Shown: positions 6,289 through 50,812 of the stretch, piece by piece
How positions within the stretch are numbered: the first letter of the stretch is position 1
Layout: the number at the start of each line of letters is the position of its first letter
Assembly (NCBI GenBank): GCA_903831305.1
Contig: CAIKXE010000002.1
Location: 15,934 to 79,933 of the forward strand
Direction: 5' to 3'
From: an uncultured bacterium
Lineage (GTDB): Bacteria; Patescibacteriota; Minisyncoccia; Phycocordibacterales; GWA1-40-21
Length of the DNA stretch: 64,000 bases
The notes under the pieces: model-generated
Told to the model about the DNA's origin: nothing
What the model saw: only the letters and a program-made list of their open reading frames with translations
Database searches by the model: none
Program-made: the position numbers and the translations under genes

Positions 6289-6298
6289 TATTATTAAT

Positions 6299-6610
6299 AT
6301 GAATCAGAAAACCAAACAAATAATAATAGCTATCATTATCATCAGTATTGCTTTTGTTATTTTTAAGGTTTCTTTTCCTAACGGCGGGGTAGAGACTGAT
6401 ACCGCCCTGGTAACTGATAATAATGCTCCGGCTGAAGTGATTGACGGGCAGATCATACTTACCTTATTGGAAAATTTAAAGAGGGTTACCTTGGATGAGT
6501 CTATTTTTGCGGACGCAGTTTTTACCAGTTTGATCAATTTTGAAAAACCGATAGAGTCTCAACCTGTTGGCCGACAAAATCCATTTTTGCCTATCGGTCG
6601 GGAATTTTAG
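6299..6610 (+). CDS. Small membrane protein in the pilus operon (possible PilP analogue)
   Basis: 103 aa with an N-terminal TM; sits between pilO and pilB. Confidence 0.4.
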   Translation: MNQKTKQIIIAIIIISIAFVIFKVSFPNGGVETDTALVTDNNAPAEVIDGQIILTLLENLKRVTLDESIFADAVFTSLINFEKPIESQPVGRQNPFLPIGREF

Positions 6611-6634
6611 TTTACCTTTTTAAGTTTAACCTGT

Positions 6635-12643: not shown

Positions 12644-13477
12644 ATGCCCACTCAAATTTTATTTTACCTTTTAGTTTTTATCTTTGGCACTATTGTGGGG
12701 AGCTTTTTAAATGTCTTGGTTTTGCGTTATGGCACCGGTATCTCACCCATGAAGGGGCGGTCATTTTGCTTTTCCTGCGGTAAAAAGCTAGGGGCTCTCG
12801 AGCTTATTCCGGTTTTCAGTTTCCTTTTCCAAGGCGGTAAGTGTAAGGGCTGTCAGAGTAAAATCTCTTGGCAGTATCCGGTAGTAGAGGCTATTGCCGG
12901 CTTGCTTTTTGTGGCCGTTATTTTACGTTATTCTGGTTTGGTAGGGTTGATCTTTGATTCATGGTTGGTCGTCATTTCTTTGTTAGTCATTGCGGTCCTG
13001 GTGGCTATCACCGTCTATGATATAAAGCACAAAATAATTCCTGATGGGCTGACTATTACCTTTGGTCTTCTGGCGCTCACTAAAATAGTACTAGATTATA
13101 ATCAGCTGACTTTGACTCCAGAGGCCAGCAAGATCCACTTGATTTCATATTTACTGGCTGGTCCGGGTCTGGCCTTACCCTTTTTCTTCCTTTGGTTATT
13201 TTCCAAAGGCCGGTGGATGGGGCTAGGGGATCCCAAACTGATGGTTTGTATGGGCTGGTTTTTGGGGCCGATTATGGGTTTGTCTGCCATTATTTTGGCT
13301 TTTTGGAGCGGGGCGCTTTATGGGCTAGTCCTTCTCGCTCTATCTAAATTCAGTTGGCATGGTCTGAAAATCACCGGCAAAACAGAGGTTCCTTTTGCTC
13401 CGTTCCTGGTTCTTGGCTTTCTTTTAGTCTTTTTCTTTCAGATTGATATTTTGAACCTTGGTTTCTTGTTACCCTGA
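12644..13477 (+). CDS. pilD: Prepilin peptidase PilD (A24 family aspartic peptidase / N-methyltransferase)
   Basis: N-terminal CxxC...CxxC zinc-ribbon-like motif (CFSCGKKL...CKGCQSK), multiple TM segments, 277 aa. Confidence 0.85.
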   Translation: MPTQILFYLLVFIFGTIVGSFLNVLVLRYGTGISPMKGRSFCFSCGKKLGALELIPVFSFLFQGGKCKGCQSKISWQYPVVEAIAGLLFVAVILRYSGLVGLIFDSWLVVISLLVIAVLVAITVYDIKHKIIPDGLTITFGLLALTKIVLDYNQLTLTPEASKIHLISYLLAGPGLALPFFFLWLFSKGRWMGLGDPKLMVCMGWFLGPIMGLSAIILAFWSGALYGLVLLALSKFSWHGLKITGKTEVPFAPFLVLGFLLVFFFQIDILNLGFLLP

Positions 13478-25247: not shown

Positions 25248-25250
25248 TTT

Positions 25251-27728: not shown

Positions 27729-27777
27729 TATTATATTTTATATGGTTATAAAAAAATTACATAAAAAAAGCGGGGGG

Positions 27778-28263
27778 ATGACCTTGGTGGAAACGCTAGT
27801 GGCTATTGCTATTATGTCCCTGCTGATGCTTACGGTGGCTTCTTTGTTAGCTAGTACTTCTAAAAGTGAAAAGAGGAACAGAGTGATTACCGAAGTAGAA
27901 TATCAGGCTTCCGCTCTTATTTATGAGATTGCTCAGTCTGCTCGTAATGCAAGCTCTATTGTGAGTCCGCTTGTGGCCGCTACTTCTACTACCTTAAATT
28001 TAGTTTTGTCTTCAGTGCCGGCCGAGAGCCCAACTATTTTTTCTTTGACCGATCAAGCCCTATATGTGTCTCGTGGGGGAGCGGCGGCTGAGCCGATATC
28101 AAGTGACACCATACTCGTGACGGGTCTGACCTTTGAAAATATTTCTGCCTTAAATACCCATGGGGCTATCAGAGTCACCCTCAATGTCCAGGGAGCAAAT
28201 CCAAATAATAAGCCCGAGCTTGTTTATGCCACTAGCCGGACTACCACAATCACATTAAGATGA
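27778..28263 (+). CDS. Prepilin-type N-terminal domain protein (pseudopilin)
   Basis: MTLVETLVAIAIMSLLML preceded by GGGGG as an SD-like sequence. The track ORF starts at 27688 and overlaps the upstream gene; 27742 is an alternative start. Confidence 0.7.
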   Translation: MTLVETLVAIAIMSLLMLTVASLLASTSKSEKRNRVITEVEYQASALIYEIAQSARNASSIVSPLVAATSTTLNLVLSSVPAESPTIFSLTDQALYVSRGGAAAEPISSDTILVTGLTFENISALNTHGAIRVTLNVQGANPNNKPELVYATSRTTTITLR

Positions 28264-28658
28264 AAATTATTAATTACAAAAATAATAAAGAAGGATTTGC
28301 CTTGCTTTACGTTATGCTGGTCTTGGCTAGCATTATTGTGGGTCTAGCTTTATCCGCTAATCAGTCGGCTTTTTTCTCGGCTAATCGGTTGAAATCATAT
28401 TCTAATTCGGCGGAGGTAAGGATGATAGCTGGTTATTGTGGGGAAAATCTTTTGATGCAGATTAGGGATAATCCAGCGCTTGTTACCACTGGTACTCTTA
28501 GTTATGCTGGTGGGTCTTGCACTTACAGTATTTCCGGTACCGTACCAGTCAAAGTGATAACCATTATTGCTTCAAAAAATAACATTTATAAAAAGCTCAC
28601 TATCACCACTTCGCAAATTTACAGCACTATTGAGGCTACCTGGGTAGAGACAAATTAG
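28260..28658 (+). CDS. Pilus-associated hypothetical protein with N-terminal TM (PilX-like)
   Basis: EGFALLYVMLVLASIIVGLAL with conserved Cys residues; 132 aa. Confidence 0.5.
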   Translation: MKIINYKNNKEGFALLYVMLVLASIIVGLALSANQSAFFSANRLKSYSNSAEVRMIAGYCGENLLMQIRDNPALVTTGTLSYAGGSCTYSISGTVPVKVITIIASKNNIYKKLTITTSQIYSTIEATWVETN

Positions 28659-37034: not shown

Positions 37035-37814
37035 ATGAAATGGAGACATTATTTATCTTTGGCTGGTTTAGCATTTTTTTTGAGTATTTTTGCCCTTATT
37101 TACACAGGTATTATTGATGTAAACTATCTGGATCTGAAGTCTAGGATTAATTGGCTACCACTACTTATCGTGGCAGCGGCTTTTGTGGATAGTATTAATC
37201 CTTGTGCTTTCTCTGTCCTGTTTATCACTTTGGCTTTTTTATTTAGTCTCGGGCATAGCCGGTCACAGATTATTAAAACTGGTTTGGTCTATGTCGGGGG
37301 AATATTTTTGACTTATATTTTAATTGGCCTGGGGATATTAAAGGTTCTGACTATTTTCAATATTCCAAACAGTATGGCCAAGCTGGGAGCCATCGCTATT
37401 ATTATCTTTGGTGTCATTAATCTTTTAAATGAGTTTTTTCCCAAATTTCCGATCAAGCTTAAAATGCCAGACGCCTCACACAGTAAAGTGGGGGAGCTGA
37501 TTGCCAAGGCTACTGTGCCGGCTGCTTTTATTCTAGGACTGCTCGTGGGGATGTTTGAGTTTCCTTGTACCGGGGGCCCGTATTTGCTGGTGTTGGGCTT
37601 ACTACATGATGAAGCTAATTTTATGAAAGGTTTTTGGTATTTAGTTTTGTATAATTTTATCTTTGTTCTGCCATTACTTATTGCTATCTTTATCTCCACG
37701 GATAAGCCCATCTTAGAAAAGCTGGATAAATTACGCCGACTGGAGACTAAAAAGGGGCGCGTGTGGGTAGCCCTCATTGTTATCGCTATGGGTTTATTAG
37801 TTTTTATAATATAA
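37035..37814 (+). CDS. CcdA/DsbD-family thiol-disulfide transporter (cytochrome c biogenesis-like)
   Basis: Conserved Cys in SINPCAFSVL and FPCTGGPY; six TM segments. Confidence 0.7.
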   Translation: MKWRHYLSLAGLAFFLSIFALIYTGIIDVNYLDLKSRINWLPLLIVAAAFVDSINPCAFSVLFITLAFLFSLGHSRSQIIKTGLVYVGGIFLTYILIGLGILKVLTIFNIPNSMAKLGAIAIIIFGVINLLNEFFPKFPIKLKMPDASHSKVGELIAKATVPAAFILGLLVGMFEFPCTGGPYLLVLGLLHDEANFMKGFWYLVLYNFIFVLPLLIAIFISTDKPILEKLDKLRRLETKKGRVWVALIVIAMGLLVFII

Positions 37815-37821
37815 TTTAAAT

Positions 37822-38325
37822 ATGACTGAAGACACAAATATAAAATATGCCGAGATTTATAAGAAGGTAGAGGCTATGAAAGCCAGTGGAACTTTGGATT
37901 TATCTACTGAGGAGGATCTAGCTATAGCGATTATGAATTTGATTTCTTTGGAAGAGCATTTTTACTTTACCGGGGCCAAGACAGATAAGCCAGAATATTT
38001 TGATTTGATGAACGAAGTCCGTCTAATGCGCACCAAACTTTTGGCTCGGCTGATAGATAAGAAGGAAGGCGAGGTCTGGTGTATCTCTAAGCATTTATTG
38101 GCTACTTCTATGCGTCTGATGGAGGTCGGTACCAAGCTACAGAAGGAGGGTAAAAAGGATGAGGCCAGGGATTTTTTCACTGATTCTCACAAGATGTTTA
38201 ACTTATTCTTTGCTCTGAGACTTAAAATTGTCAGTATCCCCGATTTGAAAAAGGTGGCAGAAGCAGAACAACCAATGACTCTGAAGGATGTGATGTCTAA
38301 ATTAGTAGATTGTTGTAATGAATAA
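37822..38325 (+). CDS. Hypothetical protein (167 aa) between ccdA-like and thioredoxin-like genes
   Basis: ORF only; no recognisable motif. Confidence 0.4.
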   Translation: MTEDTNIKYAEIYKKVEAMKASGTLDLSTEEDLAIAIMNLISLEEHFYFTGAKTDKPEYFDLMNEVRLMRTKLLARLIDKKEGEVWCISKHLLATSMRLMEVGTKLQKEGKKDEARDFFTDSHKMFNLFFALRLKIVSIPDLKKVAEAEQPMTLKDVMSKLVDCCNE

Positions 38326-38713
38326 TGATATGAAAAATAAAAGTGAAATTATTGTTCCTGTTATCGTTGGTATATTGACGCTCGTTTTCGTCGGACTTTT
38401 TGCTTACTTTGGTAGTAGTGGTGGGGTTGTGAAAAATGATAAAACTGGCCTTTTTGAAGGGCAAATGAGTTTGGAAAAGCTTTCTGAAATAAGTACTTGT
38501 CCATTGACCAGTGATAAGGATAGTTTTGCTAAATGTTTGACAGAAAAAGGTTGGACCATGTATGGGGCCAAGTGGTGCTCTCATTGCCAGGCACAAAAAG
38601 ATTTATTTGGTGATTCATTTCAGTATGTTACCTATGTGGAATGTCCGGACAACGCAGAATTATGCGTGGCGGAGGGAATAAACGGTTATCCGACCTGGAA
38701 AGTCAAAAAATAG
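38318..38713 (+). CDS. Thioredoxin-fold protein with WCxxC active site, membrane-anchored
   Basis: N-terminal TM; GAKWCSHCQAQK active-site motif; 131 aa. Confidence 0.65.
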   Translation: MNNDMKNKSEIIVPVIVGILTLVFVGLFAYFGSSGGVVKNDKTGLFEGQMSLEKLSEISTCPLTSDKDSFAKCLTEKGWTMYGAKWCSHCQAQKDLFGDSFQYVTYVECPDNAELCVAEGINGYPTWKVKK

Positions 38714-38882
38714 CCGGCTTGTGGATAACCTTTTCCTTGCATCTTTCTGTGGGCTTGATACAATATATAGCAAGCTTAAAAAGCGTTTATTAATTTATCA
38801 GCCTAATTAACAGCCCCGTAAAATTAATAGCGGGACAATGTTCTCAGAAAAATTGAGAAAATATAAAATGCCCAAAATAAAT

Positions 38883-39371
38883 ATGTCAAAGTGTGCTAAT
38901 TCCCAAAAAGGTTTCACCCTTTTGGAAATCCTGTTGGTTGTCGGTATCATTGCTATCTTGGCTGGTATCGTCATTTTGGCTATCAACCCTACCAAGCAGT
39001 TGGGTGATGCCAGAAATGCTCAAAGACGAGCAGATGTCCTCACTATTTTAAATGCCATTTATCAATATACTATTGATAACAATGGTACTATCCCTGCTAC
39101 TATTACCTCAACTTCTGCTTGCGCCTTAGGAGCAAGCCTGGAGATTGCCACTGGTACGGCTACTACTACCGGAAGCCTGGTTGGACTATACTCATACCTT
39201 GTCGGATCAGCCGCCGCTTCTTCTACCTATATCGTTTCTATTCCTAGGGATCCACTTGCTACCTCTACTGGTCCTGGTTCTGGCTATTCTGTCACTAAAA
39301 CTGCTTCAAGTCGGATTACAGTTTGTGCTCCGCTTGCTGAAAACGCTGTTTCTATTTCTGTCACCAGATAA
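38883..39371 (+). CDS. Type IV pilin (prepilin)
   Basis: MSKCANSQKGFTLLEILLVVGIIAILAG. The track ORF starts at 38838; 38868 and 38883 are alternative in-frame ATGs. Confidence 0.75.
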   Translation: MSKCANSQKGFTLLEILLVVGIIAILAGIVILAINPTKQLGDARNAQRRADVLTILNAIYQYTIDNNGTIPATITSTSACALGASLEIATGTATTTGSLVGLYSYLVGSAAASSTYIVSIPRDPLATSTGPGSGYSVTKTASSRITVCAPLAENAVSISVTR

Positions 39372-39440
39372 TCATATCTTTGTCCGCTTGTCTTGGACGA
39401 GCGGATTGTAGGTTTGGCTATTTTTATTGAAACAAAAGAG

Positions 39441-41135
39441 ATGCCTTTAACACTAGAAAAATTAAAAGAAATACTAGTTTCGGGCAACTATGTCAATGAA
39501 CAAAGTTTGGAAAATGCGGCGGCCACCGCTTTAAAAAAAGGTGAGCCTATAGAAGTGGTTTTGGTGCGGGAAGAAATGATTAAGGATGAAAAGCTGGGGG
39601 AGGCAATTTCCAAGTATTATAATGTCCCTTATACGGATTTGCGAGAGGAAAATATTCAAAATGATTTATTGGAAATGTTACCTGAGGCGGTAGCTTTGAA
39701 GCAAAATGCCGTGATTTTTGCTAAAACTGATGAGGGTTATAGCTTGGCTACTTCAGAACCGACTAATCTGAGTTTTATAAAAAGCGTGGATCAGTCTACT
39801 GAAGGACGAATCAAGATTTATTATGCTACTCCTTCCGGGATGCTTGAGGCTTTTAAGGCCTATAAGAATAATATCTTCAAGAATGTCTTGGATCTGATTG
39901 AAAACTATAAAGTGCACAATGATGAAAATAGTGTGGTGCTTCTGGTCAATCAGTTTTTGGAATATGCTTATGATAATAATGCTTCAGATGTACACATAGA
40001 GCCTTTGGCAAATAATGTGGTGTCTGTTCGTTTCCGTATTGATGGTATTTTGACTGAGGTGGTGCGTTATCCGATCGAGATGCATGACAAGATTATTTTT
40101 CGGGTAAAGATCATGTCTCACCTCCGTACGGATGAGCGCGGAGCGACGCAAGACGGTCGCTTTGAATATAAAACTGATCAGATGGAGTTTGACGTGCGTG
40201 TCTCTATTTTGCCAATTACTAATGGAGAAAATATTGTTTTTCGTATTCTCTCTGAGCGAGCCAAGAAAGTCCAGCTTGAGGATTTGGGTTTGAGTACTTT
40301 TGACTTAATAAAGGTTAAAAGGGCTATTGCTCAGCCTTATGGTATGATACTCGTGGTGGGGCCAACGGGGGCCGGTAAGACTACTACTTTATATTCTCTT
40401 ATTCAGATTTTAGCCGCCTTACCTATCAGTATTGTGACCATTGAAGATCCAGCAGAATACAGTATTGATAAGGTTCAGCAGATTCAGGTAAATCTGAAGA
40501 AAAATATTACTTTTGCCAATGGTCTACGTTCTATTGTGCGTCAGGATCCAGATGTGATTATGGTGGGAGAAATCCGTGATAGTGAGACCGCCAGTATTGC
40601 AGTGAACGCCGCTATGACTGGTCACCTTTTGTTTTCTACTTTGCATGCCAATGATTCGGCCACTATCTTTCCACGTTTGTTTGAGATGGGGGTGGAACCA
40701 TTTTTGGTAGCTTCCTCCATTAACGTGGTAGTAGCCCAGAGACTAGTCAGAAAAGTCTGTCCAAATTGTCGGATTAATTATCCTAAAACAGCGGCTGATA
40801 TCCCAGCCATTTTAGAGCAAGAAAAAACACCACAGTTTAAGGCTATGATGTCTAGGTTTTTTCCTAATAAGGAGCTTAAGGATATCAAGCTTTATCGGGG
40901 AACTGGTTGCAAGGCCTGCAAGCATACCGGTTACTTGGGGCGTATTGCCGTGTTTGAAGTGATGGAAGTGGATGATGATGTGCGAGCTTTAATCAGCGTC
41001 AAATCTTCCTCTTCAATGGTTAAAAATAAAGCCGAAGCCAATGGTATGACGCTTATGTATTACAATGGTTTGGTGCACTTGTTTAATGGTATCACCACCT
41101 TTGATGAATTAGAGGGGCTTTCCAATTTTGATTAA
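39441..41135 (+). CDS. Second PilB/GspE-family pilus ATPase
   Basis: Walker A GPTGAGKTT, ASDVHIEP...RFRIDG, C-terminal CPNC...CKAC zinc motif. The track start at 39393 was moved to the ATG at 39441 preceded by AAAGAG. Confidence 0.85.
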   Translation: MPLTLEKLKEILVSGNYVNEQSLENAAATALKKGEPIEVVLVREEMIKDEKLGEAISKYYNVPYTDLREENIQNDLLEMLPEAVALKQNAVIFAKTDEGYSLATSEPTNLSFIKSVDQSTEGRIKIYYATPSGMLEAFKAYKNNIFKNVLDLIENYKVHNDENSVVLLVNQFLEYAYDNNASDVHIEPLANNVVSVRFRIDGILTEVVRYPIEMHDKIIFRVKIMSHLRTDERGATQDGRFEYKTDQMEFDVRVSILPITNGENIVFRILSERAKKVQLEDLGLSTFDLIKVKRAIAQPYGMILVVGPTGAGKTTTLYSLIQILAALPISIVTIEDPAEYSIDKVQQIQVNLKKNITFANGLRSIVRQDPDVIMVGEIRDSETASIAVNAAMTGHLLFSTLHANDSATIFPRLFEMGVEPFLVASSINVVVAQRLVRKVCPNCRINYPKTAADIPAILEQEKTPQFKAMMSRFFPNKELKDIKLYRGTGCKACKHTGYLGRIAVFEVMEVDDDVRALISVKSSSSMVKNKAEANGMTLMYYNGLVHLFNGITTFDELEGLSNFD

Positions 41136-41144
41136 CCCTAAAAT

Positions 41145-42209
41145 ATGAAAATCAATTTATCATTTTTTAATAAAATATCACTGGAGGACCAAATCAGTTT
41201 TTCCAAAAATTTGGCGGTACTGCTTCGCGGTGGAGTGACGATCAATGAGGCGGTGGATTCCTTGGCTAGCCAGTCCAAGGGTAATATGCGCAAGGTTTTG
41301 TATCGTATCAAAGGTCATTTGGAAAATGGTGTTTCTCTTTATTCGGCTATCAGTGAAGAACCAGGGGCTTTTGGCCAGATTTTTATGAGTTTGGTCAAGG
41401 CGGGCGAGCTCTCAGGTTCCTTGTCTGAAAACTTGGAGTTTTTAGCCACCTGGCTCGAGCGGGATAGTAATCTGAGGCGAGAGATCAATGGTGTTTTGCT
41501 TTATCCCAAGATCGTTTTGACCGCCGTGGTCCTGCTTGGTGGTGGGTTATCTATTTTTATTTTGCCTAAATTAGTACCGATGTTCACCAGTCTTAACGTG
41601 ACTTTGCCCCTGATTACTAGAATAGTTTTGGCCGTTTCGGTCTTCCTACAGTCTTATTGGGTAAAGGTTATTGTCGGCACTTTCTCCACCATTACCGCCA
41701 CTTTTTTAATTTTTAAAATCCCTGTTATGAAGTACCTTTACCATAAAACCTTGGTTCATTTCCCTTATATTCAGAAATTTATTGTAGGGTATCAGCTGGC
41801 TCTCTTTTCTCAGTTGATGGGGACCCTGCTAAAGTCAGGTATCCCGATCGACGAGGCTTTAGAAGTAGCTTATGTAGGGACATCAAATTTGTATTATAAA
41901 AAAGTATTAAAGGAAATAATGGATCGGACTAATATGGGGGTATCATTGGTGGGAACAATGCATCTTTATCCCGAGCTTTATCCGGCAAACTCTTTGAGTA
42001 TTTTGTCTGTAGGAGAGAGTAGCGGAACGTTGGAGGACTCCTTTTTTAAGATTTCGGAATTTTGGACTAAAGATATTTTGGATCGGACCAAGCTCTTACC
42101 AACCATTATTGAACCAGTTCTTTTGGTAGTCATTGCGGCGGCGGTGGGAATGATCGCTCTTTCTATTGTCATGCCGATTTATAAACTGACCGGAAATTTG
42201 AAGAATTAG
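41145..42209 (+). CDS. Second PilC/GspF-family platform protein
   Basis: 354 aa, GspF repeats, three TM segments. Confidence 0.8.
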   Translation: MKINLSFFNKISLEDQISFSKNLAVLLRGGVTINEAVDSLASQSKGNMRKVLYRIKGHLENGVSLYSAISEEPGAFGQIFMSLVKAGELSGSLSENLEFLATWLERDSNLRREINGVLLYPKIVLTAVVLLGGGLSIFILPKLVPMFTSLNVTLPLITRIVLAVSVFLQSYWVKVIVGTFSTITATFLIFKIPVMKYLYHKTLVHFPYIQKFIVGYQLALFSQLMGTLLKSGIPIDEALEVAYVGTSNLYYKKVLKEIMDRTNMGVSLVGTMHLYPELYPANSLSILSVGESSGTLEDSFFKISEFWTKDILDRTKLLPTIIEPVLLVVIAAAVGMIALSIVMPIYKLTGNLKN

Positions 42210-42246
42210 ACAACCTCACTGGGCTAAAGTATGTTATAATAATCTT

Positions 42247-45200
42247 ATGAAGAGAGGTTTTTCTATGTTTGAACTTTTACTCGTAGTAGCTATTGCGGCG
42301 GTGATTTTTACTATTGTGGCCCCGGTGGGTATTAGCCTTTATCGAGCACAACTAGTGGAGGAGGTGCGGAGCAACATTATTGATGCCCTGCAAAAAGCTC
42401 GTCATAACTCTATTTTGCAAAAAGGGGATACGGCTTATGGAGTGCGCGTGGTAGCCGGGAGTTATACTATATTTCAGGGTGTGACATATGACACCAGGAA
42501 TATTGATGGAGATGAAGTTTTCCCGGTTGCCAGTAACGTCTCTTTTTCCGGTTGGCAGGATATTATTTTTGCTAAACTGACTGGCTTACCAAATGCTACG
42601 GGGACCCTGGCTATAAATTATAATGATATGAATCGTGGTATTGCGGTGGATATTTCTGGTGGTATTTCTAAGGTGGATGTGGTGGGCGGGGTGGAGGTGG
42701 TTACCGCTACTTATAGTGTCACTTTTGATGCAAATGGTGGTATTGGTAGTATGTCAGCTCAGACCTTTGATTCTGGGTCCACCGCTAATCTGAGTATTAA
42801 CACTTACACACGCTCTAGTTATGTTTTTGTTGGTTGGGCCACGAGTGTTGGTGGAGCAGTGTCTTATGCCGATGGTGCAAGTTATACTATGGGCTCTGCT
42901 AATGCCACACTATATGCCAAGTGGATAACGGTTCCCGGTGCACCCACTATTGGCACAGCTACTGCTGGTAATGCCACCTCTAGTGTCACATTCACTGCTC
43001 CGGCATCTGATGGTGGGGCAACTATTACTGGTTACACCGTCACTTCTAGCCCTGGTGGTCTCACTGGTACTGGTTCGGCTAGCCCTATTATCGTCACTGG
43101 TCTTTCAAATGGCACGGCCTACACGTTCACTGTCACCGCCACAAACTCTGTTGGCACCGGTACTTCTTCCGTCGCTTCAAACTCCATCATTCCTTCGGCT
43201 ATTTCAGCTGGTGGTCTAGTTTCTTACTGGCCGTTTGACGGTAATGCTAATGATATTATTGGTTCAAACCACGGCACAGTCTATGGTGGAGCATCTCTTG
43301 CTTCTGGTCTTAAGGGGGTCACCGACACGGCCTACAGTTTTGATGGTGTGGATGATTATATCAATGTAAACTCTTCATTTGGTAATCCAAATACAGTTAC
43401 TATTTCAGTTTGGTTTAAAACAAGCAGTAATGGAATTATATTTAATCAACATGATACCGTCTCACCTCCTACTAGCGCAAACTCTCATGTGCCAGCTCTC
43501 TGGGTGATTCCGGATGGTAGGCTTAGGGCTGAGTTATGGTCCGGAAGTATTGGAGCGATTTATAGTTCTAATAGTGTTGCTGATAATAATTGGCATCTTG
43601 CTACTTTAGTTGGTAATACTAATATTCAGTATTTATATCTTGATGGTGTTTTAGTGAATAGTAGAAGTGGTAACCTCAGTCAAAGCTGGTGGGCCAGAAC
43701 TACTTTTGGTGTCGGTTATGCAGCAAACCGTGAGGGCTCTGCTTCCGTTTGGAAATATTTTCCTGGATCGCTTGATCAAGTACATATTTATAACAGGGCC
43801 TTGTCTGGTTCAGAAATTTTGGTTATTTATAATGAGGAAAAACCGACCATCGTTGTCCCTGGTGCGCCCACTATTGGCACAGCTACCGCTGGTAACGCCA
43901 GCTCTAGTGTCACATTTACTGCTCCAGTTTTTAATGGTTATGAAAATATCACTAGCTATACGGTGACCTCTAGCCCGGGTGGCCTCACCGGTACTGGTTC
44001 GGCTAGCCCTATTATTGTCACCGGTCTTTCAAATGGCACGGCTTATACTTTTACTGTTACTGCTACTAATTCAGCTGGTACAAGTTTGTCTTCAGGCGCG
44101 TCCAACACGGTAATGCCGACGGTTGTTTCTGGAGGGCTTGCTTCATTTTGGCCGTTTGATGGTAATGCTAATGATTTGGCATCAACTAGTAATGGAACGG
44201 TTTATGGGGCTACAGCGACAACTGGTACTAGAGGCATAGCTAGTACGGCTTATAATTTTAATGCTAACACTGATTATATAGGAGGATTTGGGGATAATTT
44301 TGACATGGGGACCAATAATCAGACTATCTCTGCTTGGTATAAGGGAGGGACTTTGTCACAGATAGGGATGATTGTTGGTAAATCTCGTTATGCTGGCGGT
44401 GCTGGACGTTGGGCGGTGTATTTAACCACTGCCGGTAAGGTCGGAATGTTTATGAACTGTGGTGGTGCGGATATTGATGGTATTGGAACTAATTCTCGGG
44501 TCATAACTGATAATGTTTGGCATCATATTGTGGGAGTGTGGGACCGAGCCGGTAATTTTACTACTTATGTTGATGGTGTAGCTGATGGAGTAGTATCTAT
44601 CTCATCGTGTAATGGCTACAATATGGATAACCCTTATTACTTTTTGATTGGTACTTATGGTGATGAAACTGGTACGGGTGGTATAAAAACAATTTTGACG
44701 CTCAAGGGTAGCTTGGATCAGATTCGCTATTATAACAGGGCTCTTTCAGCTTCGGAAATTCTAGAAATTTTTAACACCGAGAGCCCTTGGTATAACAGTG
44801 CTTGGGCTTACCGCACCAGAATCACCATTGACCGCACCAAGGTAGCAAGCTCCACTGGCACGTTACTCGCTAATTTCCCCGTACTTATAAGTACTACCAG
44901 TGCCATGTTTAAAGATACGTCAAACAGTGGACACGTGGGGCAGGCGGATGGTGGGGATATTGTTTTCACTTCCGCTGACGGTATTACCAAGCTGGATCAT
45001 GAGATAGAGAGTTATACGCCCGCTTCTGGTAACCTCATCACCTGGGTGGAAGTGCCATCAGTTGCTACCACCACGAACACGGATATTTATATGTATTATG
45101 GCAATGCCAGTGTGGCAAATCAGTGGAATGCCTCAGGCACTTGGGATAGTAATTATAAAGGCGTGTGGCATTTATCTGATGCTGGTAATTCTACTAGTAC

Positions 45201-45873
45201 GGATTCTACTAGTAATGGTAACAATGGCACGAATAATGGTGTGACCGCTACTTCTTCAGGTCAAATAAACGGAGGATCATATTTCAATGGTGCGGGTTAT
45301 ATTAATATTCCTAGTAATTCTAACTTAAATGCTGGCAATAGCGGAACAACTTTGACTGTTTCTGCCTGGGTTAATCCAACAACTGCAGGCACTGATCAGA
45401 CAATTGCTTCAAAGTGGGATTATAATACTCAAGCTTCATGGGGTTTTCAAACAGGGGCAGGAGGTGAAGGTGGTGCAAGTAATTTACAAACATATATTCC
45501 CTCAACTGTTACTGATATAGGAGATAAAAAAGTATGGACGACAGATAATGGGCTATCATCAGGGTCGTGGCAGTATGTTCTTTTTGTTTATGATGGAAGT
45601 CAAACAGGAAATACAAATAGAGTTAAAATATATATTAATGGTAATTTAAAATCTGAAGCATCAGGTGGTACAGTACCATCCTCAGCCTCCGGAGGTTCTG
45701 CTTCAGTTAAAATTGGTAAATTTGGTGGAAACCTCACAAGATATTTTTCCGGTTCAATAGATGAAGTTCATATATCTTCCGTTGCCCGTTCTGCTGATTG
45801 GATAAAGACGGAATATAATAATCAAAGCGCACCGAATACTTTCTACACCATCGGCTCTGAGGTGACGTATTAG
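42247..45873 (+). CDS. Giant (1208 aa) prepilin-leader protein with 2 FN3 domains, 2 LamG-like lectin domains and a C-terminal DUF2341-like + LamG module (pilus-tip adhesin candidate)
   Basis: N-terminus MKRGFSMFELLLVVAIAAVIFTIV. Two about 90-aa FN3-like repeats (PGAPTIGTATAGNA.SSVTFTAP...YTVTSSPGGLTGTGSASPIIVTGLSNGTAYTFTVTATNS). Two LamG-like segments end in LDQVHIYNRALSGSE and LDQIRYYNRALSASE. The C-terminal module (WAYRTRITIDRTKV...DIYMYYGNASV...VARSADWIKTEYNNQSAP) recurs in the 47550 gene. A TGTTATAAT lies 6 nt upstream of the ATG. Confidence 0.8.
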   Translation: MKRGFSMFELLLVVAIAAVIFTIVAPVGISLYRAQLVEEVRSNIIDALQKARHNSILQKGDTAYGVRVVAGSYTIFQGVTYDTRNIDGDEVFPVASNVSFSGWQDIIFAKLTGLPNATGTLAINYNDMNRGIAVDISGGISKVDVVGGVEVVTATYSVTFDANGGIGSMSAQTFDSGSTANLSINTYTRSSYVFVGWATSVGGAVSYADGASYTMGSANATLYAKWITVPGAPTIGTATAGNATSSVTFTAPASDGGATITGYTVTSSPGGLTGTGSASPIIVTGLSNGTAYTFTVTATNSVGTGTSSVASNSIIPSAISAGGLVSYWPFDGNANDIIGSNHGTVYGGASLASGLKGVTDTAYSFDGVDDYINVNSSFGNPNTVTISVWFKTSSNGIIFNQHDTVSPPTSANSHVPALWVIPDGRLRAELWSGSIGAIYSSNSVADNNWHLATLVGNTNIQYLYLDGVLVNSRSGNLSQSWWARTTFGVGYAANREGSASVWKYFPGSLDQVHIYNRALSGSEILVIYNEEKPTIVVPGAPTIGTATAGNASSSVTFTAPVFNGYENITSYTVTSSPGGLTGTGSASPIIVTGLSNGTAYTFTVTATNSAGTSLSSGASNTVMPTVVSGGLASFWPFDGNANDLASTSNGTVYGATATTGTRGIASTAYNFNANTDYIGGFGDNFDMGTNNQTISAWYKGGTLSQIGMIVGKSRYAGGAGRWAVYLTTAGKVGMFMNCGGADIDGIGTNSRVITDNVWHHIVGVWDRAGNFTTYVDGVADGVVSISSCNGYNMDNPYYFLIGTYGDETGTGGIKTILTLKGSLDQIRYYNRALSASEILEIFNTESPWYNSAWAYRTRITIDRTKVASSTGTLLANFPVLISTTSAMFKDTSNSGHVGQADGGDIVFTSADGITKLDHEIESYTPASGNLITWVEVPSVATTTNTDIYMYYGNASVANQWNASGTWDSNYKGVWHLSDAGNSTSTDSTSNGNNGTNNGVTATSSGQINGGSYFNGAGYINIPSNSNLNAGNSGTTLTVSAWVNPTTAGTDQTIASKWDYNTQASWGFQTGAGGEGGASNLQTYIPSTVTDIGDKKVWTTDNGLSSGSWQYVLFVYDGSQTGNTNRVKIYINGNLKSEASGGTVPSSASGGSASVKIGKFGGNLTRYFSGSIDEVHISSVARSADWIKTEYNNQSAPNTFYTIGSEVTY

Positions 45874-45909
45874 TTTTTAGTTTGAGTTTTTTAATGATAT
45901 AATTTAATC

Positions 45910-47016
45910 ATGACTATTACTCAGATCAAGCATAGCCAAGGATTTTCTCTTTTAGAGCTGGTTTTGGCGATCGCCATTTTTGCCTTTGGTTCTTTTGCCA
46001 TGGGGGCCATGCTCATTGATTCTAACGTGAGCACTAATGTAAGTATTGAACGTACCGCCGCCCTGCTTTATGCCAAGGAGGGGATAGAGGCAGTGCGGTC
46101 TATCCGGGATAATGACTGGAATACTATCTCTGCTCTTACCGATGGTAATCACGGTCTGAGTATTAATACCGCTAGCAGTACTTGGTCTCTAAGTGGCATT
46201 GCTGATTCATTGGACAGTAAGTTTACCCGGACGGTAAATATCTCAGCTAGTTCTACTGCTTCCTTTTTAAAAAATGTGGCAGTGACGGTGGACTGGCCTC
46301 TGCAATCTGGCAAGCTGGCTACCACCACCTTAAATACCTTGGTGACAAACTGGATTAATGTGCGTAACTTACCGAGCCAAATCCCTACGGATGGTTTAGT
46401 GGCTTATTGGTCCTTTGATGACGCTATGGCCGGTACGGCCGTGGACAGTGTGGGGACAAGTACCGGTACTGTCTATGGTGCTACTTCTACTCCGGGGGTC
46501 AGGAGTTACGGGTATAGTTTTGATGGAGGGAGTGGCTATGTTGATACTAAACAAATTAACTTTAATTACTTAGCAGTGTCTATGTGGTTTTATATGAAAA
46601 CTAATAATGGGACTGGTCAGTATGTATTGGCAAGTTCCGACGATGGGTCAAGTAGAAATTGGGCATTGTATTTTAACCCATCAGGTGCGCCGAACATTAT
46701 TCGTTTCTTTGTTTTTGTGAATAGTGTTGCTCAAATGTATGATGTTCCTTTTATTCCTTCGTTAAACACTTGGTATCATGTAGTAGCCACTGCTGATGGC
46801 TCATATTTAAAAATATATGTAGATGGTGATGTTCAATCACCGCCATTTGCTTATTCTGGGCTTATTGATAAAACAGGTGTTACTGTAAAGATAGGAAAGG
46901 GTTCTAATTCCTACTCACCGAATTATTTTGATGGCAAACTTGATCAAGTCCGTATTTATAACCGTGCGTTGACGCCTTATGAAGTAGAGGTGATTTATAG
47001 TGAGGAGAAGCCCTAA
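45910..47016 (+). CDS. Prepilin-leader protein with LamG-like lectin domain (368 aa)
   Basis: QGFSLLELVLAIAIFAFG; shares the region ...EGIEAVRSIRDN with the 25251 gene; C-terminal LDQVRIYNRALTPYEVEVIYSEEKP. Confidence 0.75.
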   Translation: MTITQIKHSQGFSLLELVLAIAIFAFGSFAMGAMLIDSNVSTNVSIERTAALLYAKEGIEAVRSIRDNDWNTISALTDGNHGLSINTASSTWSLSGIADSLDSKFTRTVNISASSTASFLKNVAVTVDWPLQSGKLATTTLNTLVTNWINVRNLPSQIPTDGLVAYWSFDDAMAGTAVDSVGTSTGTVYGATSTPGVRSYGYSFDGGSGYVDTKQINFNYLAVSMWFYMKTNNGTGQYVLASSDDGSSRNWALYFNPSGAPNIIRFFVFVNSVAQMYDVPFIPSLNTWYHVVATADGSYLKIYVDGDVQSPPFAYSGLIDKTGVTVKIGKGSNSYSPNYFDGKLDQVRIYNRALTPYEVEVIYSEEKP

Positions 47017-47041
47017 TAATTAGGTGGTATAGTATAATAAT

Positions 47042-47431
47042 ATGCAGAAAAATTTTAAAGAATGGCATAAGAATAAAAGTGATATACATGAAAATAAGCA
47101 AAGACCTTTTTTTCATGAACAAGAGGTCTGGTTTGCTTCACTTGGATCAAATATTGGTTTTGAACAGGATGGTGTTGGGGAAAGTTTTTTAAGGCCAGTG
47201 GTTATTATTAAGAAGTTTAATAACGAAATATTTTGGGGTATTCCGACCACTAAGAAAAATAAAAAAGGAGTGTACTATTTTAGATTTAATTGGGGTAAGG
47301 ACAATGGCAGTTCGGCAATTCTTTCTCAAATAAGGTTGGTTGATAGTAAACGGTTATTTTATAAAATAGGCCAGATTAGTGATAAAGATTTAAAAGAAAT
47401 CAAAAAGCGTATTATTTCTTTGTTAGAATAA
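47042..47431 (+). CDS. MazF/PemK-family toxin-like protein (mRNA interferase fold), solo
   Basis: EVWFASLGSNIGFEQDGVGESFLRPVVIIKK...GIPTTKK...SAILSQIRLVDSKRL follows the PemK/MazF consensus (W..L.P..G.EQ.G.RP.VV...P.TT.....QIR..D..RL). No antitoxin-sized ORF is adjacent. Confidence 0.65.
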   Translation: MQKNFKEWHKNKSDIHENKQRPFFHEQEVWFASLGSNIGFEQDGVGESFLRPVVIIKKFNNEIFWGIPTTKKNKKGVYYFRFNWGKDNGSSAILSQIRLVDSKRLFYKIGQISDKDLKEIKKRIISLLE

Positions 47432-47549
47432 TACGCTTTTTGTTTGGACCCCCTTGCGGGGGAGGGCCGAAGCCATTTAGAGTATAAGTATAACAAACAA
47501 ATGATTTGTGTCAAGTCTAAAATAAGGTTATAATATCAGTATAAAATAC

Positions 47550-48812
47550 ATGAAAAAAAGAGGGTTTACATTACTGGAGGCGGTTTTATATCTGGCGATC
47601 GCTGGGGTGGTCATCTACTTTATCAGCGGGTTTGCGTTCAACGCCATTTTTGGTAAAGCCAAGATTGAATCCATCCAAGAGGTGAGTGAGGGTAGCCGGT
47701 CCGTGCTGGACCAGATCAGTAGCGCCATCAGTAATTCTTCTGAGATCAATGGTTTGGAGGTGGACGTTCCGCCAGGGGAAACTGTTCCTTGGTATGATGT
47801 CTCTTGGATCTATCGAAAAAAGATTACTATTGATAAAACCAAGGTACCTAATACTGATCAGACTAATTTTCCGGTGTTGGTGTCACTCACTGGTCTCTCA
47901 AATATAAATGCAAACGGTACCGATATTAGATTCACTGATTCAACCGGTACTGGAGAACTAGCTAGAGAAATTGAATCATATTCCGCTGGCACATTGGTGG
48001 CTTGGGTCAAAGTGCCCGTACTTTCTACTTCTGCCAATACGGATATTTATATGTATTATGGCTCTTCGGGAGCCTCAGAGCCTTCGCCAAGATCGGCCTA
48101 CGGTTCACAAAAAGTTTGGGATGATGGTGGGAGTAATTATTTTAAAGGCGTGTGGCACTTAGCCGACCCGACAAATCCAGTTGATTCTACAGATGCGAAT
48201 AACGGGACAAACAGTGGATCGACAGCTACGGTTGGTCAGGTTGATGGCGGTGCATATTTTACTTCAGCAAATTATATCTCTCTTGGAGCATCAAATTTAT
48301 TTACTCCAACAACAGCATCAACTTTAAGTTTTTGGGTCAAAACATCCAACACGCACTACCAAAGATTATTTGTTTTTGAAAGGGCGTCTGGTTCATCAGC
48401 TATGGCTTTAAATATTGCAGTTAGTACTGGCGCCGGTGACGATAATAACGGGAAACCTTATGCTTTTTATCGCAATAGCTCAGATATATTGCTTTCAATG
48501 ATTGGTCCGTCGTCAATTGCTGATGGCAACTGGCATTACTTATCATATACTATTAATAATACAGTGGGCAGTTTATATGTCGACGGAATATCAGCTGCAA
48601 CTGCCAGTGATATTAGCGTTTCAAAAACTTTCAATTTTTCGAGCGATAATGCTCTTATTAACTATTTTACTAGCAATGGCCTTAATCCGGGATATCTCGA
48701 TGAGTCCAGATTTTCTAACACTGCCCGCTCGGCGGATTGGATAAAAACAGAATACAATAACCAAAGTTCACCAGCGACTTTTTACACCGTGGGGTCTGAG
48801 GAGACACCCTAG
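47550..48812 (+). CDS. Prepilin-leader protein with DUF2341-like + LamG-like module (420 aa)
   Basis: MKKRGFTLLEAVLYLAIAGVVIYF. Its WIYRKKITIDKTKVPNTDQTNFPVLVSL...DIYMYYGSS...ARSADWIKTEYNNQSSPATFYTVGSEETP parallels the C-terminus of the 1208-aa protein. Confidence 0.8.
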   Translation: MKKRGFTLLEAVLYLAIAGVVIYFISGFAFNAIFGKAKIESIQEVSEGSRSVLDQISSAISNSSEINGLEVDVPPGETVPWYDVSWIYRKKITIDKTKVPNTDQTNFPVLVSLTGLSNINANGTDIRFTDSTGTGELAREIESYSAGTLVAWVKVPVLSTSANTDIYMYYGSSGASEPSPRSAYGSQKVWDDGGSNYFKGVWHLADPTNPVDSTDANNGTNSGSTATVGQVDGGAYFTSANYISLGASNLFTPTTASTLSFWVKTSNTHYQRLFVFERASGSSAMALNIAVSTGAGDDNNGKPYAFYRNSSDILLSMIGPSSIADGNWHYLSYTINNTVGSLYVDGISAATASDISVSKTFNFSSDNALINYFTSNGLNPGYLDESRFSNTARSADWIKTEYNNQSSPATFYTVGSEETP

Positions 48813-48814
48813 TC

Positions 48815-48940
48815 AACCTCTCCCGCCAGCCGACTGGTGACCTCCCCTCATCTGATGGGGGGGGTGCGGAGAGTAACGTCTTCTCCCTCACATTAGTTAA
48901 GGGGAGGGTGTCGTTCTGACGACCGGAGAGGTTGTGTTTG
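48815..48940. repeat. Copy D (diverged) of the GC-rich multi-hairpin intergenic element
   Basis: Outer 10-bp stem CAACCTCTCC...GGAGAGGTTG encloses the hairpins CCCCTCATCTGATGGGGGG and CCCTC...GAGGG. Starts 3 nt after the upstream stop; a TATAAT lies 8 nt before the next gene's GTG. Confidence 0.55.
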
Positions 48941-48979
48941 TGTGTTGGTTTTGAGAGCGGATGTGGTATAATTTAAAAT

Positions 48980-49414
48980 GTGGAGAAGTATTTTAATCAG
49001 CGGAAAAATAAGCAAAGGGGTTTTTTGGTCTTGACCCTAGTGCTTCTGGTCTGTGCCACGGTTCTCGCTATCGCTTCTGGTATCTTTCTCCGTTCCATCG
49101 GCAAAGTAAGTGAGACCGGTGATTCAGAAAACTCTTTTAAATCCTGGAGTGCGGTGAATGCTTGCGGGGAATATGCCCTGGGGCGTATGGCCTCTATTGC
49201 TAGTGGTCAGCCAGGCTGGGCCTATCAAGGAAATGAGCTTTTGACCATCGGGGGTGAGACATGCTATATTTATGGCATAATTACCCAGGGAGAAAGCAAA
49301 ATCATTCAGGCTTCAAGTACGGTTTCCAATTTTACTAAAAAGATTGTTATTGAAGTGGCCACTAATACTCCCAAGGTCGTGATTAGTTCCTGGCGGGAAG
49401 TGGCGGATTTTTAG
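48980..49414 (+). CDS. PilX-like pilus protein with N-terminal TM (144 aa), GTG start
   Basis: RGFLVLTLVLLVCATVLAIASGIFL. The start follows the ORF track (GTG at 48980), 8 nt after TATAAT. Confidence 0.5.
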   Translation: MEKYFNQRKNKQRGFLVLTLVLLVCATVLAIASGIFLRSIGKVSETGDSENSFKSWSAVNACGEYALGRMASIASGQPGWAYQGNELLTIGGETCYIYGIITQGESKIIQASSTVSNFTKKIVIEVATNTPKVVISSWREVADF

Positions 49415-49426
49415 TTTAAATAGTTT

Positions 49427-50812
49427 ATGGATTATAAAGAAAAATTAAGAGAAATTCTGAGTGTAAAGTTTGATAATGCCTTTGGTTTAGACATTGGTGA
49501 TGGCTCCGTGGAGATTATTCAGTTGCAAAAGTTTTTTCGCTACTCTATTACCACTTATGGTCGGGAAGAATTGTCAGCGGGAGTTGTAGAAAACGGCCGA
49601 ATCCTTGATCCTAATGCTCTGGCGGAGAGCCTTAAAAAGTTGCTTCGCAACGCCAAGCCCAAGAGAGTGTCCACTAACAAGGTGATTGTTTCCTTGCCAG
49701 AGTCTCAGGTCTTTACAAATTCTTTTGAAGTTGATTCCAAGCTTAAGGCCGGAGCTTTATCAAATGTTATTTTAGAAAAAGTTGGCCTTTCAATGCTTGT
49801 TAATGTGGATAAAACATATTGGGATTATATGGTCAGTCCTTTGCCGGACAAGACAAAAAAACTGGTGACTTTTTTCTGTGTTCCAAAGGAGATCGCAAAT
49901 AGTTATGTCAAATTTTGTAATTCTATCGGGCTTGAGGTGGTGTCCCTCTGTCTGGAGCCACTAAGTTTGGCTAGAGTCATTTTAAAAAGTGCTTCTAGAC
50001 AAAGCCTGATAATTGATATCGGTTCTGGTGCTACCAACCTTAATTTTTTTGATAGTAATGATAAGTTAAATGTCTCTATTACTTTGCCGGTTGCGGGAGA
50101 GCAAATGACCAAGGCTATAATGGATAGGTTAAAAATAGAGAGGGACGAGGCAGAGACATTAAAGGTCAAATTTGGTTTTCAAGATGTACCAGAAAACACC
50201 ATTCGCCCTATTATCCAGCCCGTTTTTGAGGATATCATGTCTGAGATAAAAAGCGCTATTACTTACTATGAGGAATCATTTAAACAAAAGCTAGATGATA
50301 TTTACCTTATTGGTGGCTCGGCTCTTTTGCCGGGGTTATTAGAGGCAATGCGCGTGGGTTTGGCAAGGACAGTTGTTTTTGGTGCTTGTACCCATAATAT
50401 TGATTTTACAGTTATGACTGGTAAAAATAATCAGTTTGTTTTATTTGCCAATGTTTTAGGTTTGGGGATACTTGGCTCAAGCACTGGGTATCGGGACATT
50501 AACTTTTTAAAGAAGATGCCACGAGTAGAGTCAAATTCAGTAAATAAGCTTAATCTGCTAAAATTAGGATATCTGAGTAAAGTGAATACCTTGCGTACCA
50601 TTATGAATAATAAGTTGATTTTGATATTGATGATCGCCGTAATTGCCACCATTTTTTACTTTATGCTTTTACAGATAGAAAGTTATGAAAAGAAATTGGT
50701 AGAAGAAAATACCTTGAGTGAGGTGTTACTACCTTCACCGGTAAGCCGTGGTGGAGTTTTGTCTACTAGTACTGAGGCAAACATTATTAGCACCTCAACC
50801 ATAATCAAATGA
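49427..50812 (+). CDS. PilM-like actin-fold ATPase fused to a C-terminal PilN-like TM segment (461 aa)
   Basis: GLDIGDGSVEIIQLQK... PilM-type N-terminus; TM segment near residue 395 (LILILMIAVIATIFYFMLL). Confidence 0.7.
   Translation: MDYKEKLREILSVKFDNAFGLDIGDGSVEIIQLQKFFRYSITTYGREELSAGVVENGRILDPNALAESLKKLLRNAKPKRVSTNKVIVSLPESQVFTNSFEVDSKLKAGALSNVILEKVGLSMLVNVDKTYWDYMVSPLPDKTKKLVTFFCVPKEIANSYVKFCNSIGLEVVSLCLEPLSLARVILKSASRQSLIIDIGSGATNLNFFDSNDKLNVSITLPVAGEQMTKAIMDRLKIERDEAETLKVKFGFQDVPENTIRPIIQPVFEDIMSEIKSAITYYEESFKQKLDDIYLIGGSALLPGLLEAMRVGLARTVVFGACTHNIDFTVMTGKNNQFVLFANVLGLGILGSSTGYRDINFLKKMPRVESNSVNKLNLLKLGYLSKVNTLRTIMNNKLILILMIAVIATIFYFMLLQIESYEKKLVEENTLSEVLLPSPVSRGGVLSTSTEANIISTSTIIK

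Follow-up and report, generated by a model that had tools for sequence, protein, structure and literature searches.

A type IV pilus locus of an uncultured patescibacterium encodes modular minor pilins, candidate tip adhesins with lectin-like modules

Introduction

Little is known of how ultrasmall Patescibacteria recognize their hosts and bind to them, and hardly any of these bacteria have been cultivated. Here we describe a type IV pilus (T4P) locus at positions 38838–50812 of a 64,000-nucleotide stretch of DNA (the window; contig CAIKXE010000002.1) from an uncultured bacterium of the Patescibacteriota. The locus is the third T4P gene set of the window (set 3), and three of its minor pilins are loaded with extracellular modules. 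Its closest precedents are PilB and PilC of Streptococcus sanguinis and PilX1 and PilX2 of Saccharibacteria.

The definition of modular pilins comes from Raynaud et al. (2021; PMC8179133). In Dataset S1 of that work, the commonest architecture is a pilin joined to PF13385 (229 proteins). Pilin-DUF2341-PF13385 (3), pilin-DUF2341 (7), and pilin-fn3 (12) are also listed, as are PilY1 proteins with DUF2341-PF13385 N-termini (IPR018765-PF13385-IPR008707). PilB of S. sanguinis, which has a vWA module, and PilC, which has Ig-like and concanavalin A (ConA)-like lectin modules, are modular minor pilins and tip adhesins (PMC8179133; Shahin 2023, PMC9934059). The PilC lectin binds sialylated glycans and heparin oligosaccharides, and the I-like PilA, PilB, and PilC have been modelled as a tip complex (PMC9934059). 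Core minor pilin sets are proposed to prime pilus assembly and to remain at the tip (PMC9934059). In Nanosynbacter lyticus TM7x, the minor pilin PilX1 has a β-jelly-roll resembling L-type lectins and PilX2 has a β-propeller; deletion of pilX2 lowers host binding by half, and binding is inhibited when sugars are added (PMC11623550). For the DUF2341 proteins of archaeal T4P loci, a role as adhesins at the pilus tip has been proposed (Makarova 2016, PMC4858521), and the domain has been noted in giant proteins of Patescibacteria (PMC11809585).

Minor pilins of the locus

The locus comprises nine genes, all on one strand (Table 1), and constitutes a T4P assembly locus. Four minor pilin genes, starting at 42247, 45910, 47550, and 48980, lie between the PilC and PilM genes, and their products match the H-I-J-K tip or priming set by position and partial homology. 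Three of the four are modular, with a conserved N-terminal carrier followed by extracellular cargo. The H cargo is Flg_new-(FN3-LamG)x2-DUF2341-LamG, the I cargo is one LamG, and the J cargo is DUF2341-LamG. We consider it fairly probable that these minor pilins, once processed by PilD, come together at the pilus tip in a complex whose lectin-like modules serve to bind a host or a surface. What we document below is the gene content, the leaders, the identities of the domains, their folds, and the contrast of conserved carriers with variable cargo.

A first-pass annotation, made from the DNA letters of the window, had singled out the three large genes as consecutive. All three are present, with a PemK/MazF gene splitting the second from the third, and a fourth prepilin-like gene (48980–49414) completes the minor pilin set. 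The pilus association that it proposed agrees with the leaders, the PilD gene, the position between PilC and PilM, and the ComGD/GspH- and PilV/ComGE/GspI-like carriers.

Each of the three modular proteins has a class III leader, in which Gly(−1) is followed by F-x-x-x-E and a hydrophobic stretch. With a slash marking the predicted cleavage point, the 1208-aa protein begins with MKRG/FSMFE and the 420-aa protein with MKKRG/FTLLE, and the leader of the 368-aa protein ends in HSQG/FSLLE; a hydrophobic helix follows in each. Gly(−1), Phe(+1), and Glu(+5) show no variation, or almost none, in the alignments of the carrier families. Against the curated PF07963 cut-off of 21.2, the 368-aa protein scores 23.7 and the 420-aa protein passes marginally with 21.3. 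The 1208-aa protein scores 20.2 with TIGR02532, whose cut-off is 16.3. The motif and these curated N-methylation models bear out the class III leaders that the first pass had recognized. Some gene callers place the start of the 1208-aa protein six codons downstream, giving 1202 aa. As the G-F-x-x-x-E motif is kept in the orthologous family, the start at 42247 is supported. The leader of the fourth minor pilin differs in having Thr, not Glu, at +5. In its family alignment this position is mostly Thr and never Glu, and Cys62 and Cys95 are invariant.

Given these leaders, PilD would cut the prepilins after Gly(−1). The four subunits would assemble via their α1 helices on the PilC platform and prime polymerization of the major pilin, and would therefore end at the distal tip. 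Up to five ConA-like jelly rolls on FN3/Flg_new spacers would be presented there to host surface glycans or other ligands. The LamG ligand-binding cores and the complement of modules would evolve fast, tuning target specificity. Cleavage, tip location, lectin activity, and a host-binding role are proposed by analogy with characterised systems, and the proteins are best described as putative adhesins.

Identity of the carriers

We aligned the carriers alone, taking them from the window and its related loci, and compared each member with NCBIfam models. In the H family, 19 of 20 members match ComGD (best value 4.7e-11) and 19 of 20 match GspH (2.7e-8). The ComGD match of the 1208-aa protein extends over aa 2–127 and covers 122 of 139 model positions. 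In the I family, ComGE is matched by 12 of 17 members, PilV by 11, and GspI by four. The H and I labels thus have moderate homology support. The 420-aa protein has no match among the NCBIfam models, and homology to GspJ, PilW, or ComGF was not found. The K-type protein matches no Pfam family. Its profile matches the last pilin gene of set 2 (28260; hhalign 91%), which is accordingly K-type, and weakly matches a set 1 protein that has a sub-threshold PilX_N match. The K label is supported by position and by the missing Glu5.

The mature parts of the three modular proteins had been described in the first pass as not pilin-like. This holds for the 420-aa protein, and it fails for the 1208- and 368-aa proteins, each of which contains a pilin module of ~150 aa.

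As ComGD is the best match of the H family and the I carrier matches ComGE, set 3 might be a competence-type (Com-like) DNA-uptake pilus, whose modules serve DNA capture or biogenesis and not host adhesion. In the same direction, the DUF2341 protein MMJJ_08210 of the Methanococcus maripaludis epd pilus locus has been repeatedly recovered in a transposon screen for transformation defects (PMC10133366). A 259-aa protein encoded at 3086–3865 (− strand), which adjoins set 1, has a weak C-terminal phosphoribosyltransferase match that is perhaps ComFC-like. However, GspH is matched as frequently as ComGD, and any piliation defect would score in the archaeal screen too. The set 3 ATPase is a full-length PilB with MshEN, whereas the short ComGA type sits in set 2. 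LamG, FN3, and Flg_new are modules typical of adhesins or carbohydrate binding, and pilin mutants of the host-binding pilus of TM7x kept normal competence (PMC11623550). A competence pilus is hence improbable here.

Domain architecture and predicted structures

The 1208-aa protein matches Laminin_G_3 in three stretches (E=7e-49), fn3 in two (E=2e-17), DUF2341 (E=1e-11), and Flg_new (E=6e-13). The LamG, FN3, and DUF2341 assignments of the first-pass annotation pass the curated Pfam thresholds, so that the failure of domain searches that would have spoken against it did not occur; Flg_new in the 1208-aa protein had been overlooked. DUF2341 (PF10102), for instance, scores 45.2 and 44.9 bits against a gathering cut-off of 23.4. 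The C-terminal module said to be shared by the 1208- and 420-aa proteins is the DUF2341-LamG pair, which is 38% identical between aa 847–1207 of the former and aa 80–419 of the latter (E=1e-61). The LDQVxIYNRAL motif, also first noticed by eye, is present in three LamG copies. The two FN3 units of the 1208-aa protein have 79% DNA identity. The cargo domains (Laminin_G_3, fn3, DUF2341, and Flg_new) lie C-terminal of the N_methyl motif, as in the modular pilins of Raynaud et al. (2021).

Structure prediction with AlphaFold2 (AF2), one of the checks proposed in the first pass, covers the 368- and 420-aa proteins. The model of the 368-aa protein has a mean predicted local distance difference test score (pLDDT) of 75. 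It has an α1 helix of 55 residues and an antiparallel β-sheet at aa 79–145, which together form the canonical pilin 'lollipop'; a linker and a jelly roll at aa 163–366 follow. The model of the 420-aa protein (pLDDT 82.5, predicted TM-score 0.78) is composed of α1 at aa 8–61, the DUF2341 β-sandwich at aa 88–170 with pLDDT above 94, and a jelly roll at aa 198–414. This model has no β-sheet pilin head. A full pilin module joined to cargo is thus present in the 368-aa protein by AF2 and in the 1208-aa protein by profile, and the 420-aa protein has only α1 as its carrier.

The LamG modules score above the PF13385 gathering threshold and adopt the β-jelly-roll fold. Both modelled jelly rolls match ConA-like domains that bind carbohydrates or other ligands, namely AbnA domain 4, the clostridial neurotoxin Hc-N domain, the sialic-acid-binding CBM40, pentraxins, and the neurexin LNS domain. 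All PDB matches to the 420-aa model fall on its LamG part. PF13385 belongs to the ConA-like lectin/glucanase superfamily, which raises the alternative that the modules are pilus-delivered enzymes of glucanase or lyase type degrading host cell-wall polysaccharide. By a wide margin, however, the modules resemble non-catalytic binding domains most closely; the Pfam scan gave no match to a catalytic family, and the hypervariable core described below is easier to reconcile with a binding surface than with an active site, which should be conserved. We regard delivered enzymes as very unlikely. A PilY1-type adhesin was also considered and rejected, since Pfam found no PilY1 C-terminal β-propeller in any protein of the region.

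Conserved carriers and varied cargo in related loci

Relatives were located by a contig search with an alignment of the orthologues of the 368-aa protein; a contig search with a single PilC protein as query found no relatives. A homologue search with the full-length 1208-aa protein was swamped by unrelated FN3-repeat proteins and yielded one clearly related prepilin-type protein (P0276). The closest loci all come from metagenome-assembled genomes of Patescibacteria (the candidate phyla radiation), including Saccharibacteria, Paceibacterota, Campbellbacteria, WWE3, and Peribacteria. Mapping 23 loci (given L numbers below) with phmmer reveals that the order pilin-PilB-PilC-H-I-J-K-PilM-MFS-L25 is conserved, and in the closest loci (L007–L009) the flanking genes are 62–95% identical to those of the window. 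The candidate major pilin at 38838, in which internal Met codons allow shorter leaders, is 56% identical to the syntenic pilin of L009.

Bare carriers are usual in the related loci, with H and I of ~150 aa, J of ~70 aa, and K of ~145 aa. In L011 and L013 all four are bare (~152, 150, 70, and 145 aa). The bare J-position pilin has 70–79 aa (for example at 10430–10642 of L011, and in L010–L018 and others) and consists of the leader and α1 with no globular head. Cargo varies from locus to locus. It occurs on the I carrier only in L010, whereas H carries LamG in L016 and L017, FN3 and LamG in L018, and Flg_new with LamG repeats in L015 (851 aa) and L021 (893 aa). L009 has Flg_new and DUF2341 on H alongside DUF2341 and LamG on I. 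In L023, L025, L027, and L028 the I carrier has cargo of an unrecognised type, and truncated giants of at least 1744 and 1976 aa occur in L012 and L008, respectively. Compared with the 23 related loci, the window is alone in combining recognised cargo on all of H, I, and J; in L008, I and J are also loaded and a giant 5'-truncated gene occupies the H position. The K-type pilin is never modular in the relatives and is 59–90% identical to its syntenic genes. The α1 of the window's J is 97% identical to the cargo-less gene of L007 and 85% identical to a 293-aa protein of L008, in which a single LamG replaces DUF2341-LamG.

An exhaustive phmmer search with the H carrier returned 3413 representatives. 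All but one of the 26 closest are modular (228–1202 aa), and the more distant ones are mostly bare (140–155 aa). Among the proteins with the H module at the N-terminus, that of the window is the longest. Ten large members contain mostly Laminin_G_3, together with Flg_new, Gly_rich_2, fn3, Golvesin_C, an NHL/SGL propeller, TIG, or Lcl_C. The I carrier of relatives is also fused to a PQQ-like propeller, Lcl_C, a Gly-rich domain, or LVIVD repeats.

These comparisons bear on the alternative that the products are cell-surface proteins for which the prepilin-like N-terminus is only an anchor or export signal, so that they act as static adhesins or in a short pseudopilus and do not enter a filament. 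Very large cargo, up to ~1050 aa, and a J carrier consisting of the α1 helix only would fit such proteins. So would the N-termini of the best 120 homologues of the 420-aa protein. A bacterial class III leader is missing from 118 of them and present in only two; ordinary Sec or SipW-type signals prevail, and several proteins begin with an archaeal pilin N-terminus (PF07790). On the other hand, the carrier order beside PilB, PilC, and PilM is kept in all related loci, and several genomes have bare minor pilins. Glu5 and α1 are highly conserved, with a mean pairwise identity of 78% and of 90% with close relatives, as expected of subunits packing into a filament core. Moreover, solved modular pilins do assemble into pili. 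We therefore find a role as mere surface anchors unlikely and retain tip-located minor pilins as the preferred explanation.

The sequence of the window is 99.98–100% identical to six independently assembled metagenome contigs, and hence is not an assembly artefact. Strain-level variability was not seen among these six copies, which differ by a single nucleotide polymorphism at 48066. Independently built metagenome assemblies of the organism share breaks at 47251–47256, inside the PemK gene (L005 and L006), and at 49118, inside the K-type pilin gene (L001 and L002). These recurrent breaks may hint at population-level structural variants.

Hypervariable cores of the LamG modules

We compared the segments of the 368-aa protein with those of its three closest orthologues. 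The α1 helix is 90–91% identical, the pilin head 73–84%, the linker with the N-terminal edge of LamG 89–95%, and the C-terminal strand 75–86%. The LamG core at aa 206–340 is only 21–27% identical. Its nucleotide identity is ~0.36–0.40, and its boundaries are sharp on both sides. A like pattern occurs within the 1208-aa protein, in whose FN3-LamG units FN3 is mostly 70–100% identical and the LamG core 11–35%. DNA repeats shared by the paralogues cover segments of the LamG frame, which consists of the conserved N-terminal edge and C-terminal strand of the fold. The LamG core on the window's I carrier resembles cores on H carriers from other genomes more than it resembles the cores of its own positional orthologues. 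This decoupling of core similarity from carrier similarity is only suggestive, all identities being low. Paralogue diversification, which the first pass had read from the gene organization, is supported by these comparisons and extended to the contrast of carrier and cargo and to the LamG cores.

An origin of the variable cores from a diversity-generating retroelement was rejected, as neither a reverse transcriptase nor a template/variable repeat pair was found. The scan for reverse transcriptase domains, which was negative, covered most, not all, of the window's open reading frames of at least 120 aa, and the only repeats present are diverged domain paralogues.

We suggest tentatively, and as more doubtful than otherwise, that the H-I-J-K tip complex of this lineage is a re-programmable receptor-binding platform. 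The LamG frame and the carriers would serve as recombination anchors, and modules and cores would be exchanged between carriers, paralogues, and genomes, setting the host that is attached. Consistent with such exchange are the poorly conserved cores between flanks that are 73–95% identical, the same pattern in the FN3-LamG units, the decoupling of core from carrier, and the repeated frame segments. The J α1, 85–97% identical in three genomes with three cargo states, and the presence of an IS200-like transposase and a PemK gene inside the cassette of relatives are also consistent with it. If true, the re-programmable tip would be the cellular counterpart of phage receptor-binding proteins with their mosaic make-up.

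Other genes and features of the window

The window contains three T4P gene sets, as the first pass had reported. Its remark that this is unusual does not hold, since cultivated Saccharibacteria carry multiple T4P loci (PMC11623550). Set 1 is complete and has PilM, PilO, PilB, a response regulator, PilT, PilC, several pilins, and PilD. Set 2 is ComG-like, with PilC, an ATPase of the short type, and four pilins, one of which is an 825-aa protein. Its pilin genes (24819–28658) have the same H-I-J-K layout as set 3. Gene 24819 encodes a bare H-type pilin, and gene 25251 encodes the 825-aa protein, an I-type modular pilin with three ~90-aa repeats, two ~100-aa repeats, and a 220-aa C-terminal domain. 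Neither these repeats nor the C-terminal domain has any Pfam match. Set 3 has no PilN, PilO, or PilT gene of its own. Its PilM-like protein (49427–50812) has a C-terminal extension of ~100 aa with a transmembrane segment and is possibly a PilM-PilN-type fusion.

Table 1. Coordinates of the genes of set 3, the prepilin peptidase gene, and the modules of the three modular minor pilins
Feature	Coordinates	Strand	Evidence or remark
Candidate major pilin, set 3	38838..39371	+	PF07963 N_methyl 29.8 bits; GspG/ComGC-like N-terminus; 177 aa as called
PilB-type assembly ATPase, MshEN + T2SSE	39393..41135	+	PF00437 E=8e-118; TIGR02538 E=1e-141
PilC/GspF-type platform protein	41145..42209	+	PF00482 (T2SSF) E=3e-48
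H-type modular minor pilin, 1208 aa	42247..45873	+	Leader, ComGD match, TIGR02532, Pfam domains
1208-aa protein: pilin module	42247-42696
1208-aa protein: Flg_new	42697-42930
1208-aa protein: FN3-1	42931-43200
1208-aa protein: LamG-a	43201-43851
1208-aa protein: FN3-2	43855-44124
1208-aa protein: LamG-b	44125-44790
1208-aa protein: DUF2341	44791-45246
1208-aa protein: LamG-c	45247-45870
I-type modular minor pilin, 368 aa	45910..47016	+	N_methyl 23.7 bits; Laminin_G_3 E=2e-24; PilV/ComGE/GspI-type matches
368-aa protein: pilin module	45910-46374
368-aa protein: LamG	46375-47013		Hypervariable core 46525-46929 (aa 206-340)
PemK/MazF-like gene, solitary, 129 aa	47042..47431	+	PF02452 E=5e-10
J-position modular minor pilin, 420 aa	47550..48812	+	N_methyl 21.3 bits; DUF2341 E=2e-11; Laminin_G_3 E=1e-15
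420-aa protein: leader + α1 helix only	47550-47783
420-aa protein: DUF2341	47784-48134
420-aa protein: LamG	48135-48809
K-type small minor pilin, 144 aa	48980..49414	+	Leader QRG/FLVLT; family alignment; synteny
PilM-like protein, C-terminal transmembrane extension	49427..50812	+	PF11104 E=1e-25; hydrophobic segment near C-terminus
Prepilin peptidase PilD, sole one in window, in trans	12644..13477	+	A24_N_bact PF06750 E=6e-28; Peptidase_A24 PF01478 E=7e-11

Directly upstream of the set 3 pilin, 37035–38713 encodes two proteins assigned from sub-threshold Pfam matches. One is a SfLAP/DsbD_TM-like membrane protein, and the other is thioredoxin-like, anchored in the membrane, and contains a WCSHC motif. 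The gene pair is syntenic in L009 (2115–3778). The two products could act as a thiol-disulfide system for the invariant cysteines of K-type pilins.

The PemK/MazF gene probably does not belong to the pilus. A TAGTATAAT −10 box of its own stands immediately before the ATG, and a GC-rich hairpin follows the stop codon (47441–47465); gene and hairpin together span 47042–47465. No antitoxin-sized open reading frame lies beside it. Homologues with 44–47% identity are found inside the cassette in L007 (1–318) and L009 (10856–11242), and a third lies near the locus in L013 (12041–12526). In L008, the giant H-position gene is separated from the gene of the I-type pilin by the IS200-like Y1 transposase gene (6081–6776).

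An extended −10-like box (TGnTATAAT) ending ~6–7 nt 5' of the start codon precedes 17 of the 59 gene starts in the window, that is 29%, compared with 3% of random positions. Examples are found at 42232–42240, 45895–45903, and 48964–48972. Such closeness to the start codon suggests leaderless transcripts. As the H, I, PemK, and K genes have one box each, they may be transcribed individually. The K gene starts with GTG, which is odd for a leaderless mRNA.

Discussion

Several observations weigh against a lectin-bearing tip complex. All H and I carrier scores are below the NCBIfam equivalog cut-offs. The J label is positional only, and the J carrier is without a pilin head. The K-type protein is small (144 aa), with no bulky GspK-like cap or extra domain. 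Set 3 is without a PilT retraction ATPase, the only PilT of the window being in set 1. Ligand-binding residues are not identifiable in the LamG modules, and lectin activity is thus proposed by fold analogy only. Cargo of ~1050 aa on a single pilin also exceeds that of any characterised modular pilin. Nevertheless, the three alternatives, a DNA-uptake pilus, surface-anchored proteins, and delivered enzymes, fit the evidence less well than modular minor pilins displayed at the pilus tip.

The locus is a sequence-defined candidate recognition device, with a four-subunit tip and up to five lectin-like heads. Its constant parts are the carriers and the LamG frame, and its variable parts are the complement of modules and the LamG cores. 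The most useful new points are the map of carriers and cargo and the sharply bounded hypervariable cores, which we predict to be usable as host-range markers in metagenomes. The modular pilins documented here exceed those highlighted in the 2021 catalogue in size and in cargo load, and one minor pilin has α1 alone as its carrier.

Four adjacent prepilin genes beside ATPase and platform genes are also the arrangement of GspH-I-J-K, FimU-PilV-PilW-PilX, and ComGD-E-F-G. In line with these core sets, the first protein of set 3 is ComGD/GspH-like, the second PilV/ComGE/GspI-like, and the last is without Glu5. Set 3 differs from them in that its matches are sub-equivalog, its J carrier when bare is ~70 aa of α1 only, its K is small with no capping insertion, and its cargo domains are foreign to those families. 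PilY1-type and archaeal DUF2341 proteins share with the window the DUF2341 and Laminin_G_3 supermodule, for which published work has proposed a position at the pilus tip. The carrier of this supermodule in the window is a bacterial class III α1, unlike the PilY1 β-propeller and the archaeal pilin N-terminus.

Similar to TM7x, which belongs to the same superphylum and also has several T4P loci per genome, set 3 has large C-terminal accessory domains on minor pilins, which in both cases are proposed tip adhesins, for host cell-wall glycans in TM7x. The modules are different, those of the window being Pfam-recognisable Laminin_G_3, DUF2341, fn3, and Flg_new. Each pilus system of TM7x has a single accessory domain, in contrast to three loaded subunits in the window.

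The likeness to S. sanguinis PilB and PilC lies in a class III leader and a pilin carrier linked to a non-pilin module. The module of PilC has a ConA-like jelly-roll fold and is a proven lectin; those of the window are putative lectins. S. sanguinis likewise has an I-like partner pilin and a proposed tip location. Different from S. sanguinis, three of the four minor pilins are loaded in the window, one carrier (of the 420-aa protein) has no globular pilin head, and the organism is uncultivated. The 1208-aa protein has seven extra domains and is longer than the 860-residue extreme multi-domain case of PMC8179133. Hence, the locus represents an unusually heavily loaded example of the published modular pilins and introduces no new principle.

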